Shown here: positions 666 through 57,303 of the stretch, in pieces
How positions within the stretch are numbered: position 1 is the stretch's first letter
Layout of the letters: every line of letters starts with the position of its first letter
Source of the DNA: Eledone cirrhosa
Taxonomy: Eukaryota
Direction of reading: 5' to 3'
Length of the DNA stretch: 64,000 nt
NCBI GenBank assembly: GCA_964016885.1
Contig: OZ024761.1
Coordinates: forward strand, 310,001 to 374,000
The notes under the pieces: generated by a model
Told to the model about the DNA's origin: nothing
The model's input: only the letters and a program-made list of their open reading frames with translations
Databases searched by the model: none
Program-made: the position numbers and the translations under genes

Positions 666-1117
666 GTTATACTTGGGGAGGGTCATATTTGTGTAATATT
701 GCCAGAATTAATAACAGAACACACTCACTGTTTGGTTGGTTTTCGCTTCTCGCTGTCTTTTATATCGGTAATCTAACTTACTCGGTCCTCAATGTTGCCA
801 TTGACTGACCAACGGTCAAAAATAATACAGATACAATATAGACACAAACACACATATATATAGTTTATGATAAACTATATATATGTGTTTGTGTCTATAT
901 TGTATCTGTAATATATTGACCGTTGGTCAGTCAATGGCAACATTGAGGACCGAGTAAGTTAGATTACCGATATAAAAGAGAGCGAGAAGCGAAAACCAAC
1001 CAAACAGTGAGTGTGTTCTGTTATTAATTCTGGCAATATTACACAAATATGACCCTCCCCAAGTATAACAATATTTGTTTCGACACACGATTTCATATAA
1101 AAAACCTCGCAAAACTA
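666..1117. mobile_element. ORF-less palindromic PLE terminal repeat (arms 666-868 / 870-1069; right arm extends to 1117) inside (TA)n
   Basis: About 200-bp near-perfect inverted arms centred on tagtttat-g-ataaacta. The same sequence forms the 3' end of the PLE remnant at 42715-42980. Confidence 0.85.
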
Positions 1118-1837
1118 TATATATATATATATATATATATATATACTCTTATGAATTCCTCTACGTTCCTAAGAGAGAGAAGAAAAAACTCAACTATCTA
1201 ATTCTCTTCTACAAAATATACTTTAGCAGCAACAGCAACAACAGCACCATTCTGCTCGAGAAGACATCGTACAGAAGCCATTATATCAGGGACTGGTTAC
1301 CCTTTGTCTGTAGTGCTGATGGTCTCGTTCCAGTCATTTTCGGGGGGGGGGGGATTACGTATAGAATTATTTATACACAAACACACATTATATAGAAAGA
1401 CATAAAATATGTAAATATGATGTGCAGCGTGTGTGAGCGTATTGGTGGGTGTGTAGTGGAGTATATATATATATGTATATATATATTTGTACGTAGATTT
1501 GTAAACAATATACATTACATATATATATATTCATAAATAAATATTGCACGCAAGTTTGTGGTTTTTTTTTATGTATATACATGTATGAATACACACACAC
1601 ACACACGCGCGCATATATATTATATATACACACACATATAAATATATATACTCACACATACATATATATATATATATAAATACACACACGCATGTATATC
1701 TATATATACATATATACACGTATATATATATATAAATCACACACAGACACACACACATATTTATATATATATATATATATACATACACACACACACACAT
1801 ATATATATATATATATATATATATATACGATATAAAT

Positions 1838-1900
1838 ACTTGGTGAGTGTTTTTATATCAGTTATAAATATTTACTAGTTGTAACCCAACAATTTAAATA
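1838..1900 (+). mobile_element. 3'-terminal fragment of the PLE terminal-repeat family seen at 22585, 40608, 58165 and 59520
   Basis: Reverse complement matches ttgttgggttacaac...ataactgatataaaagcactcaacaa at 22604-22656. Confidence 0.6.
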
Positions 1901-1974
1901 TAACTTTATATATATATATATATATATATATACACATGCGTAGCTTTATAAACATTATACATTACATAATAATA

Positions 1975-4900
1975 TTTATGTTAGCTGTTACGGAATTTCA
2001 CTCATTCATTTACTGCCATTCTACCTTCTTGTGTCTCCCCCTCCATGCAGCCCCTTTTCGATCTCGTTTTCTGGCACCTCCATATATATAGGTGAGCTAT
2101 GCTGCCCTCTTACCAGCACTATCCCTTCCAACCACACACACCAGCAACCACCCCTGATGCCGCTCGGTGCCACAGTCCCCGGCCCCACGCCCCATCCCCC
2201 ACCATTCCAAATCGACACCTGCAGCACTTGCGGCACCACTAACAAACGGAAGAGGGGCCGGAACTGTTTGGGGTGCGGCTGCTTCCACCACCTCACCTGC
2301 GTTGGCTTGACTCGTCGAGCCTACAATGCCCTCGCAGCGTGGAGGTGCAGGAGCTGCCTCTTCCCCCCCATGTCTTCCCAGCCACGGCCGTCTGGCACAC
2401 CACCAGATGGGACAGCGAGCTTGCCTGACGCCCGAGCCTCGCTGGTCAACATCGCTCGGCTCAGGCGGCTCCGGAAGATCCCACTCAGGATCCCGAGAGC
2501 GGCACGGGTGCCGGTGGCCGATGCCCTCGCTTCCTCGATTGAGAGCGCCCTGGACTCCAATCGAGCCAGTGACTGGGAGCGGCTGTTCTATTTCGCCCCA
2601 CTCGCATCGGCCTCCCCAGCTCTGGCGCTGACCGGGGGGGGGGGGGGGCGGTCAGCAGCAGCCTTCGTCAAGGCCAATGTCACGTCATTTGGGCGAACGC
2701 CCATTCCAAGCGTGCCTAGGGACGCCACACACCCCACCCTCAGGTACCCCCTATCGTCCACCCCCGAGGCCAGCGCCAAGCGTTTGCGTGACCAGGTAAA
2801 CGCAAAGCTTATCATGGCTGATGTCTCGGCCGCAGTCAGAGTTGTTGCCTCAGAGGACACTGTCCTCCAACCCATCGAGGAGATCCTGGCTGCTCTGCGG
2901 CTCAAACACCCTGAGCCACCCACTGATCTCAGACCCATATCCCCATCCGACCCCCACCTGCTCCTTGTGGCTACTGATGCAGATATCATGTCCGCTATCA
3001 GGCCCTTCCCAGCTAGCAGCTGCGGAGGTGTTGATGGTCTTCGACCAGGCCCCCTCAAGTTGACATCCCCCCTCTCCGCTGAGGCCGGGCGCCGCCTTCT
3101 GAGTGCAATTGTGGCGCTCACCAATAGGCTCATTCATGGTGCCCTCGACCCTTACGCCCGAGGCCTCTTTTTTTTTGGCCAGCCTCACCGCTCTCAGGAA
3201 GAAAGAGGGTGGCATACGCCCGATTACTGTGGGCAATGTCTTCCGGAGGCTGGCTGCCAAGGTGATCTGCAAGTCCGTCACACATGAACTGGGTGAGGCG
3301 TTTAGTCCGGTGCAACTGGGTGTCGGCGTGTCCGGTGGCTGTGAGGGAGCTTCTCATGCAATCAGGCAGTTCTTCAGCAGCTGTCCATCGGTACCGGCAT
3401 CCAGGGTCTCCAGGCACCTCATTGTCAAGCTTGACATGAGGAATGACTTTAACTCTTTACGCCGGGATCATCTGCTCGAGGCCTGCCTCAGCCGCGCCCC
3501 CTCTGCCTACCCGCTTGTCTACCTGTCATATGGAGCCCCAAGCATGCTCCTAGCTGCTGATACGGTCATACCCTCGGCTACTGGGGTCTAACAGGGCGAC
3601 CCTTTGGGGCCCCTCTTGTTCGCCCTTGGTATTGACCACATCGCCCGGAGTATCACGGCCCCTCTCAACGTTTGGTATCTGGACGATGCTACGTTGGGCG
3701 AGCCCGTACGGACGGTCTGCCAAGACCTTCAATCGGTGATTCCTGCCCTGGCGGGAATCGGCCTCCAGGTCAACTCGGCCAAGTCGGAGGTGGTGAACGT
3801 CAGCCTCGATGCTGTGAGCTTTGCAGCCTCCGTCTTGGACGTGCGGTCCATTCTCCGCCAGGTTCAGGTGACCCTCAAAGAGGATGTCCTCATCCTCGGG
3901 TCACCGATCCACCCGCCGGCCATCCGCTCCACCATCAGGTCCAGGCTTCAACAGCTCCAGACTCTCACGAGCCGACTGGGCTTGATTGATGGCCACCCAG
4001 CTCTCTTTCTGCTGAGGAACTGCTTCGCCATGCCGAAGCTCCTCTATACACTCCGCAGCGCTCCATGCTACACCCAGACATCTCTCCTCGTTGACTTCGA
4101 TACTTGTATCCGAGCAGCAGCCGAGGGCATATGCAACGTCAAGTTTGACGACATAGAGTGGCAACAGGCCACTTTACCGGTCAGGTATGGCGGCCTAGGC
4201 CTCCGATCTCCGATCTCACTAGCTTTGCCGGCGTATCTTTCGTCGGTAACCTCGTGCCACGTCCTCGTCAGCAGGGTTCTTCAAAACACAACAGAACCCT
4301 CTGTGTTCAGAGAACGCGAGGCCGCCTGTGAGACGTGGGACCGGCTGGGACTTAGCCCATGACGTCAAGTCCCCCCAACACACTTGGGATGCCATCCAGT
4401 GCAGCCTGGCGTCAGACAGGCTCACGCGCCAGCTCGACCAGCACCGCCTTGCTTGTTTTCGTGCGGCCTCCAAACCCCACATTGGTACCTGGCTCCATGC
4501 TCTGCCCTCCTTCTCCACTGGCACGCAGCTAGACAACCATAGCCTGCGAATCGGCGTTTCCCTGAGGCTCGGCCTCAGGATCTGCCAGCCACACCAATGT
4601 CGCTGCGGTTCCACCGTGGACTCTTTCGGCCTCCACCCGCTTTCCTGTTGCCACAGTGCCGGCCGCATTCCACGCCATACTGCCCTCAACGAGGTCATTA
4701 AGCATGGCTTGGACGCTGCAGGCTTCCCTTCCCGGCTCGAGCCGGTGGGGCTGGATCGAGGGGACGGCAAAAGGCCAGATGGCATGACCATCTTCCCGTT
4801 CCGCGGTGGCAAACCCCTCGTCTGGGATGACTCATGCACCGACACTTTCTGCAGCCGCAACCTGGTGCAGGTTCTACTGCACGTCGGGCTGAGGGGGCCA

Positions 4901-5230
4901 AACTCCTTAAATACCGGTCGCTCTCCGACAGGTTTTGCGGTCGTTCCCCTGGCAGTGGAAACTTCTGGTGTCCTCGGCCCTAGGGCTACCTCCTTACTTA
5001 CCACCATAGGCGCTGAGCTGGCCAGCCGTAGGTGTGAGCCCCGCGAGTTGGAGTGGCTTTTCCAGCGCGTCTCCCTTGCGTCCTCCGGGGAAAGGAAACG
5101 CCTTCTCCATTCTGTCCGCCGGGGCTGTGGATGGGCCCCATCGCGTACCATTACATTAGTTAAATACCATTCTTTCATCCCAGTAGAGTTAAATAAACAT
5201 GTTTGTGGTTAAAAAAAAAATAAAAAAAAT
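1975..5230 (+). mobile_element. Decayed CRE-like non-LTR retrotransposon (PHD finger - RT - zinc knuckle - restriction-like endonuclease)
   Basis: C4HC3 motif at about 2219-2355. RT motifs GGIRPITVG, QLGVG..GCEG..H, KLDMRNDFNSL, GV*QGDPLGPLLF and WYLDD. CRCG..H.LSC..RH knuckle and RLE motifs RPDG..WD..AVE. A-rich tail at 5211-5229. Frameshift in the T-run near 3170, stop at 3589, frameshift near 4355, deletion near 4880. Confidence 0.85.
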
Positions 5231-56518: not shown

Positions 56519-56535
56519 TATATATATATATAGGA

Positions 56536-56727
56536 ATGATCTACTTTCGTCAAATCGGACCGAGGAAACAATGTTTCCGTTGGTCTTTCCAATTGCTAAT
56601 ACTATCTGTCGATCGCAACTCCAGGTAGAAGGAGCAACGTGAAATAAAGTGTCTTGCTCAAGGACATAACGCATCGCCTGGAATCGAACTCACAACCTTA
56701 CGATTGCGAATCCAATTCTCTCACGCC
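56536..56727 (-). mobile_element. SINE-B copy lacking its A box
   Basis: Matches 37587-37797 but tggctgagtggct is deleted. Confidence 0.8.
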
Positions 56728-56743
56728 TTCACAATAGCAGTAA

Positions 56744-56863
56744 ATGCTTACGGCACCTAGGGTTCCCAAGCGGTCACCCATCTAAGTACTAACTAGGCTC
56801 GACGTTGCTTAACTTCGGTGATCGGACGAGCACCGGTGTTTTCAGCGTGATATGGCCGTAAAC
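56744..56863 (-). rRNA. 5S rRNA: 5S rRNA (solitary copy, gene or pseudogene)
   Basis: 120 nt: gtttacggccatatcacg..tcgtccgatcaccgaagttaagcaac..gttagtacttagatgggtgaccgcttgggaa..gccgtaagc. The terminal helix pairs. Confidence 0.93.
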
Positions 56864-57099
56864 ATTGATATATATATATATATATATATATATATATATA
56901 TATATATATATATATATATATATATATATATATATATATATATATATATATATATATATATATATATATATATATATATATATATATATATATATATATA
57001 TATATATATATATATATATATATATATATATATATATATATATATATATATATATATATATATATATATATATATATATATATATATATATATATATAT

Positions 57100-57303
57100 A
57101 TAGGAACCAGTAAGACCCCGACAGCTGAGCTCAAGCCGTTTCGACGGCTAATTCTGGACTCATGAGTCCAGAATTAGCCGTCGAAACGGCTTGAGCTCAG
57201 CTGTCGGGGTCTTACTGGTTCCTATTACCCACTCTACTACCTCAAGTATTGAGTACTTTGGTGCGTTATGGTCCACCTGGTTCCTTACCACATTTCCTTC
57301 GTT
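57100..57303. mobile_element. ORF-less palindromic PLE-type terminal repeat (perfect 63-bp arms 57100-57225), apex inside the hammerhead core
   Basis: Centre ctcatgag. Each arm reads AUGA-g..c-GAAAC-ggcu..agcu-GUC. The right arm extends 78 bp. Flanked by (TA)n. Confidence 0.85.

Follow-up and report, generated by a model that had tools for sequence, protein, structure and literature searches.

Insertions of endonuclease-bearing (EN+) Penelope-like elements (PLEs) typically contain an inverted, 5'-truncated copy, with an optional tail at one end (Craig et al. 2021, PMC8557442; PMC3846280). Transcription of Penelope is known to start within the pseudo-long terminal repeat (pLTR; PMC8557442), and pairs of hammerhead ribozymes on opposite strands have been noted (PMC4209133). 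A PLE protein assayed in vitro cuts the two strands of its target and extends both, starting from two sites that delimit the tail, and its main substrate is uncut RNA; no RNA ends were found at the ribozyme cut of this element (PMC11167929), and in vivo evidence for such hammerhead cleavage is described as lacking (PMC4209133). The origin of the tandem and inverted structures of PLEs and the action of the hammerhead in vivo are both named as open in the available parts of PMC8557442, PMC11167929, and PMC4209133. Here, we analyse a window of 64,000 nucleotides (contig OZ024761.1, positions 310,001 to 374,000) that contains five head-to-head palindromes without open reading frames (ORFs), here called stubs, together with their relatives in the 3.0-Gb genome of 1796 contigs. 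Each palindrome is probably one insertion of an autonomous PLE, produced by twin priming from two fixed start sites and end joining. Both open questions become directly testable in this genome, where one family group holds more than 10,000 young junctions and a Hydra-type element with an intact frame of 784 aa is present.

Five asymmetric palindromes

Self-comparison of the window delimited five palindromes, which we label by the position of the apex as P1 (868), P2 (22852), P3 (30235), P4 (36120), and P5 (57162). They span 661-1074, 22672-23032, about 30067-30411, 36053-36188, and 57100-57225, respectively, and their arms are 96-100% identical over the parts that are not TA (96% in P1, 99% in P2, 98% in P4, and 100% in P5). 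A first-pass annotation of the window had described such palindromes with outward-pointing arms in or beside (TA)n, and this layout was recovered at all five. The mirror symmetry ends at the element termini, the outer flanks beyond the TA are unrelated, and the (TA)n flanks would hide a target-site duplication. Each palindrome consists of one long arm with a tail and one short arm. This asymmetry had been recognized in four of the five, but the left arm of P4 reaches 35968 and the pattern holds for all. The five had also been assigned to different families; those of P1 and P3 are in fact related and share a tail at 86%. Three looser cases are present as well. The features are:

666-867, minus strand: short arm of P1, pLTR of a Neptune-like PLE, ending at the short start site
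864-1117, plus strand: long arm of P1 with tail; hammerhead with a weak stem, predicted to cut at 867/868; the centre coincides with a native 5-bp inverted repeat
22585-22848, minus strand: long arm of P2 with an 87-nt tail, Hydra-type PLE, full hammerhead
22849-23032, plus strand: short arm of P2, starting about 29 nt below the TATATAA box of the family; hammerhead core at 22932, predicted cut 22981/22982
30065-30227, minus strand: short arm of P3, Neptune-like PLE, starting 14 nt upstream of the cut
30223-30472, plus strand: long arm of P3 with a 56-nt tail; 5 nt of microhomology at 30223-30227; the hammerhead is intact and predicted to cut at 30261/30262
35968-36123, minus strand: long arm of P4 with tail, Hydra-type PLE; the outer 85 nt are absent from the first-pass annotation
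36117-36188, plus strand: short arm of P4; its hammerhead is degenerate, with CAGAAGA as native core, and predicted to cut at 36159/36160
37889-40605, minus strand: decayed ORF-bearing copy of the P4 family with pieces of the reverse transcriptase (RT) and endonuclease; its pLTR ends at the short start site
51065-51882, no strand assigned: looser case from a further family of abundant repeats, inverted in nested fashion; short end and tail are arranged as above
51931-52068 (inverted pair 51931-52010), no strand assigned: looser case, short inverted pair with tail, a further repeat family
57100-57160, minus strand: short arm of P5, Hydra-type PLE, very young
57165-57303, plus strand: long arm of P5 with a tail of about 80 nt, starting in loop II of a U3-A8 hammerhead; predicted cut 57205/57206
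58163-58398 (inverted pair 58163-58340), no strand assigned: looser case, two inverted copies that belong to a sister subfamily of P2

Parent elements

By sequence, each palindrome arm is the pLTR of an ORF-bearing PLE family of this genome (92-100% identity), which bears out the earlier attribution to PLE pseudo-LTRs. The long arm of P5 is 100% identical to the ORF-flanking copy in the tandem unit of locus L216, while the identities to ORF-flanking copies are 98.5% for P2, 98.1% for P4, 94.4% for P1, and 92.5% for P3. L216 is a 3531-bp tandem array of the P5 family with an open and intact frame of 784 aa, and L218 has the order pLTR-ORF-pLTR followed by an inverted copy. Motifs of an RT and of a C-terminal GIY-YIG endonuclease were read in the ORFs of L216, L218/L224, L219/L222, L257/L239, and L223. 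Searches of Pfam and PDB gave no matches for the eight parent ORFs, so that membership in the PLEs rests on these motifs; the ORFs have 646 unnamed full-length homologues. The features of EN+ PLEs that were seen are a single ORF encoding RT and GIY-YIG domains, tandem or partially tandem pLTRs, an inverted truncated copy, and a tail at one end.

The proteins of the P2, P4, and P5 families contain the motifs DKT and RWR (RWK-like), a CxCX5C linker, and CxxC and CxH around E/N, and they lack CCHH, which matches the published description of the Hydra clade and suggests that they are Hydra-type PLEs. The P1 and P3 proteins have a CX4CxxC linker and two cysteines between GIY and YIG (CCHH); they appear to be Neptune-like, with motifs that fit Neptune and Nematis jointly. 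The palindromes are thus new members of known PLE clades, with a layout that is already published, and retro-insertion into (TA)n, as had been suggested, is supported. The families are abundant and contain thousands of further palindromes, with genome-wide anchor counts of 11,237 for P5, 38,962 for P4, 5,935 for P1, and 22 for the P3 subfamily. The pattern of the P4 arm has 14,397 exact copies in the genome, and a random genome sample of 0.8 Mb contained at least 99 inverted-repeat matches of mixed origin. A single (TA)n tract often holds stubs of several PLE families, stacked or fused to one another (L069, L108, L236, L248, and others). One P5 copy (L072:1500-1970) jumps from the early ORF to the start of the pLTR through a 5-nt microhomology, yielding a short direct tandem.

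Pairing of the arms

A short 3' end is paired with a long 3' end in 66 of 71 P5, 29 of 29 P4, and 26 of 28 P2 palindromes, the last count including 23 long ends that the script had over-extended into the TA. Single copies end at either of the two start sites, short or long. Either arm can be the one that reaches further 5': the short arm extends more than 8 nt beyond the long arm in 10/66 P5 and 19/29 P4 pairs, and the long arm consists of the tail only in 4 of these 10 and 14 of these 19. Among the 14 tail-only long arms of P4, six end no more than about 5 nt from the short start site (P=0.008, with a window set post hoc), and look as if the complementary DNA (cDNA) had met the other primer on one RNA. 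Within each family, the 5' ends concentrate in a single zone, and the junctions show 0-6 nt of microhomology or short inserts. At polymorphic sites, the two arms are discordant in 2/58 cases in P5, as compared to 27% between insertions, and in 4/159 cases in P2, as compared to 31%. This sharing of alleles points to one template or one source locus, and two RNAs drawn randomly from the family pool are ruled out.

In the mechanism that we propose, cutting of the (TA)n target would leave two strands that both prime cDNA synthesis on a single RNA, one cDNA beginning at the short start site and the other at the long. Both would run to or toward the 5' end of the RNA and then be joined. The start sites probably precede the ORF, within the leader (in P5 the long site is 93 nt from the ATG), so the stubs would be ORF-less by geometry, with no need for a separate non-autonomous class. 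Where the arms overlap, one cDNA may have been displaced from the RNA, or two RNAs from one locus may have been held on a dimer; to our knowledge, the RT of PLEs has no RNase H. Twin priming on one RNA fits the pairing, the non-nesting, and the sharing of alleles, although the nested pairs may still be products of snap-back synthesis.

A broader reading, to which we give even chances, is that twin priming is the normal integration route of EN+ PLEs, where a dimer gives each strand one start site, and that the junction centres are a fossil map of RNA 5' ends, in which promoter starts are recorded together with, in one family, cleavage in vivo by a variant hammerhead and insertion of the cut RNA. 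Twin priming on a dimer with one RNA would explain the one-end tail, the inverted 5' copy, and the stubs in one step. We found neither twin priming nor start-site run-off applied to PLEs, nor mechanistic counts like those given here, in the literature searched, outside which lay most subscription papers and supplements.

Position of the junctions

The P5 sample comprised the loci of all but one of the first 100 matches to an anchor placed just below the cut, plus incidental copies. In 47 of the 54 in-range pairs (55 in all), the arm reaching further 5' stops 33-45 nt above the cut, where 4.4 were expected (P=1e-43), while two end at the cut, where 2.4 were expected. Likewise, 8 of 18 in-range P4 pairs (20 in all) end at the zone of that family (1.4 expected, P=3e-5), and none of the 18 ends at the cut. 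For P2, the pairs were query-selected, and 19 of the 21 have their end 128-140 nt above the cut. The P3 sample of 30 loci covers 21 of the 22 exact anchor matches; 7/13 short copies end 90-106 nt above the cut and none of the 13 within 10 nt of it. The P3 zone sits just above a AAAATGGCG motif, which we take to be of the YY1 type, and so does the P1 zone. In the P1 family, the ribozyme is complete and uncut in 95 of 100 arms (counted by eye). The apex positions are therefore non-random relative to the expected counts, as had been anticipated, but they peak upstream of the cut.

P5 and P2 each have a TATA-like box 29 nt above the zone; accordingly, the long arm of P5 in the window starts 29 nt below the TATTTAAA box of its family. 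These positions suggest that the junction zone is the transcription start in the pLTR, which would be the 5' end of the RNA, and that the cDNA ends there by run-off. The putative start zones themselves lie 40-44 nt (P5), 133 nt (P2), and 45 nt (P4) above the cut. In the P5 family, T runs of variable length often precede the 5' end, and may represent untemplated A or slippage on the cDNA end.

Hammerheads and predicted cleavage sites

Hammerheads were read from uncut family copies, and cores and stems are found in the pLTRs of all five families. The cores of P2 and P3 are canonical, while P1 has a weak helix I, and CAGAAGA replaces CUGANGA in P4 (U4A variant). The P5 hammerhead is a U3-A8 variant, a type described in PMC4209133, and has a 37-nt loop II. 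Its 5' half lies upstream of all sequence present at 57100-57303, and both P1 and P5 in the window lack the 5' half of the ribozyme. Upon folding, helices I and II form in P2, P3, and P5 but only helix II in P1, and P4 adopts another fold. The hammerhead was absent among the Rfam matches listed for the window (150 of 335), which include only 5S rRNA and below-threshold microRNA. A canonical minimal hammerhead with a palindromic stem III is located at about 50895-50945 (plus strand), in the end of another repeat adjoining (TA)n.

The first-pass annotation had placed four of the five apices at the ribozyme and the fifth (22852) about 70 nt upstream of it. From the predicted cut positions, an apex is at the cut in P1 only (867/868), while the apices of P2, P3, P4, and P5 are 35-130 nt upstream of the predicted cut, and the template was thus uncut there. 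The window's P1 junction falls at the cut because a native 5-bp inverted repeat straddles the site. The CUGANGA motifs in which the apices at 36120 and 57162 were said to lie are products of the junction: uncut family copies read TTTCAGAAGA and CATTTAGTCC at the P4- and P5-type apex sites, and CTGATGAG occurs at the P5-type junction in three genome copies only, all of which are palindrome centres. A native CUGAUGA upstream of P5 was rejected for this reason.

Palindromes centred near the cut form a minor class. There are 299 in the P5 family genome-wide, versus 11,745 centred at the upstream zone by a pattern that also captures a sister subfamily. Among the first 50 of the 299, counted by eye in this one family and uncorrected for microhomology, 18 stop precisely at the base that follows the predicted cut and are preceded there by a non-native base, 11 have blunt junctions that a CG microhomology explains equally well, 8 fall on a native 6-bp palindrome, and 13 end elsewhere. 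The 18 are likely a trace of hammerhead cleavage in vivo, and suggest that cut read-through RNA sometimes serves as template in the P5 family, where such RNAs would make up a few percent of the templates at most. In the P1 family, only 18 near-cut palindromes are found genome-wide, four with the junction of P1 in the window.

Alternative explanations

Several observations weigh against twin priming from a transcription start. Automatic pairing is unreliable in P1 and P3 because of their shared tails, so that its output for these families was set aside, and the P2 pair set was chosen by a query that starts near the zone. No clear TATA box stands at the 29-nt spacing in P4, P1, and P3, many single P4 copies extend far upstream of the zone, and the P4 and P5 zones resemble splice acceptors. 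A cap-derived extra G, which as a start marker had seemed strong in a query-selected set, failed in the unselected P5 tally (G in 3 and C in 4 of 100 rows) and is weak in P4 (G in 6 and C in none of 100, P=0.03). The sequencing runs listed for these sequences include none from RNA. According to the available text of Frangieh et al., the use of start sites does not differ between strands, whereas the genome shows near-strict pairing of short and long ends. Furthermore, most P5 pairs are nested or near-equal (50 of 66 differ by no more than 8 nt); snap-back synthesis accounts for these pairs too, and the concordance of the arms agrees with it equally well.

Snap-back synthesis, where the first cDNA folds on itself and self-primes a second strand that becomes the short arm, was the mechanism suggested for these palindromes, and resembles the proposal of Arkhipova et al. 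(2013), who interpreted palindromic junctions as the result of self-priming (PMC3846280). It would account for the alleles common to both arms, for microhomology of 1-6 nt at 29/71 P5 and 12/29 P4 junctions, and for P3 in the window, which fits a fold-back with a 5-nt stem. However, a copied arm must nest in its template, and the non-nested pairs of P5 (10/66) and P4 (19/29), 18 of which have a long arm made of the tail only, refute it as a general rule. In addition, single copies also end at the short site, which marks a priming site rather than a point where copying stopped, and many centres are blunt, loop-less, or contain inserts (37/71 in P5). We consider it unlikely as the source of the palindromes. 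The companion claim, that short RNAs delimited by the ribozyme are copied in trans as a separate non-autonomous class, agrees with the near-cut P5 palindromes (18 exact and 11 compatible among the first 50), and non-LTR retrozymes have been described as non-autonomous PLE derivatives (10.64898/2026.07.22.740005). Yet most arms run through the cut or start upstream of it, as shown by the excess of centres at the upstream zone, by the sampled P5 pairs at the cut, which are as few as expected, and by the uncut ribozymes of the P1 family. Moreover, the arms match ORF-bearing elements, the centres vary among otherwise identical copies, which means that the palindromes are not copied as units, and the ribozyme would fix the 5' end only, since the 3' ends are RT start sites. 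Nor was a fixed palindromic unit found that is copied whole in the manner of a miniature inverted-repeat transposable element or a self-copying stub. A separate class is thus very improbable. The model that combines ribozyme and snap-back is wrong as a rule and right for a small class.

Priming on two strands could also be true while the pile-up of 5' ends reflects a stop of the RT (at a splicing intermediate, a bound protein, or an RNA structure) or another cut in the RNA. The P4 and P5 zones do read like 3' splice sites, an intron end in Drosophila virilis coincides with the start of helix I (PMC4209133), as does the P4 zone, and the evidence from the cap is mixed. On the other hand, a constant upstream exon was not seen in 100 rows, the T runs and templated inserts at the junctions resemble run-off additions, and the spacing of 29 nt to the TATA-like box is identical in two families, so we regard this account as quite improbable. 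Finally, palindromes in TA repeats are hard to assemble, and a fold-back artefact of amplification or assembly had been named as a danger. But the mirror halts at fixed element ends, the flanks are unrelated, some arms have diverged, and the asymmetry of short and long arms is fixed across thousands of loci, which makes an artefact next to negligible as an explanation. Opposite-strand joints were also present at the P5 start zone in raw reads of another study; this reduced-representation library was amplified, may be from a related species, and likely has a restriction site near the P5 zone, and it supports but does not prove the junctions. In four other sequencing runs on the P5 leader, the depth rises at the start zone, and ends followed by (TA)n are seen at the long site in 4/4 and at the short site in 3/4. 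A pile-up of reads at L216:4763 in the raw-read run was left out, since it falls on an AATT site and may reflect restriction cutting.

Other features of the window

Two further small palindromes of imperfect symmetry sit in (TA)n at 22357-22562 and 55748-55830, and both have relatives at other places in the genome. Single pLTR pieces of the P2-like and P1 families, several with hammerhead cores, are found at 40617-40753, 41217, 59523-59748, 42709-43106, and 1840-1907. The segments 9829-10245 and 20697-21113 are 417-nt inverted copies of each other (98% identical), and each is a head-to-head inverted pair resembling a short interspersed element (SINE). More such pairs of an abundant SINE-like repeat are seen at 26626-26804, 32159-32277, and 54596-55032. 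A complete 5S rRNA copy (56745-56863, minus strand, 109 bits) adjoins the long (TA)n beside P5. The stretch 1944-5212 (plus strand) is a non-LTR retrotransposon with frameshifts, in which PHD and RT are matched weakly, and a second fragment at 53935-54396 (minus strand) shares its C-terminal region. The fragment at 57385-57866 (plus strand) has weak C2H2 zinc-finger matches and resembles the 3' end of a long interspersed element (LINE).

Comparison with known systems

If the genome is that of an octopus, the stubs would be a likely source of the loci that form double-stranded RNA, of which octopus has an unusually high fraction (PMC5625713). With EN+ PLE insertions as described in the available texts (PMC8557442, PMC3846280), the stubs have in common the head-to-head inverted pLTRs, the tail at one end, the palindromic junctions, the (TA)n targets, the hammerhead in the pLTR, and the pairing of hammerheads on opposite strands (PMC4209133). 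They differ from typical insertions in that both arms are cut back to the pLTR, leaving no ORF, in that the tails are 45-90 nt rather than 30-40 nt, and in their number, which exceeds 10,000 in one family group. The occurrence of arms that are not nested speaks against the self-priming put forward in 2013 (PMC3846280). The Poseidon element PAc in vitro (Frangieh et al. 2024, PMC11167929) is similar in that the tail lies between two internal RT start sites, in that both strands are nicked and extended, and in that ribozyme cleavage is unnecessary. However, its start sites are located inside the ORF and not ahead of it, as here, no RNA ends were seen at its cut, whereas a small class ends at the cut here, and the available text does not tie extension of both strands to inverted insertions. 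P2, P4, and P5 share with PLEs of the Hydra clade (PMC8557442, as far as available) the DKT, RWK-like, and CxCX5C motifs, the lack of CCHH, and the insertion into (TA)n. They are placed there by these motifs, and the hammerheads of P4 (U4A) and P5 (U3-A8 with a 37-nt loop II) are variant.

Twin priming itself was reportedly introduced for LINE-1 by Ostertag and Kazazian in 2001. In the families studied here, the second priming site is fixed and located 45-90 nt from the first, the arms overlap into palindromes, and this is a main outcome. In LINE-1, both target ends likewise prime on one RNA and joining by microhomology yields an inversion, but the second primer is placed at variable sites and the arms barely overlap (10.1101/2024.12.14.628481, in the part available). 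The non-LTR retrozymes, according to the available part of their description (10.64898/2026.07.22.740005), are similarly ORF-less, PLE-derived, and equipped with a type I hammerhead. They consist of direct tandem units with a complete ribozyme in each, an arrangement that was not found in the palindromes, whereas the stubs are single inverted pairs that are made anew at each insertion and often lack the 5' half of the ribozyme.

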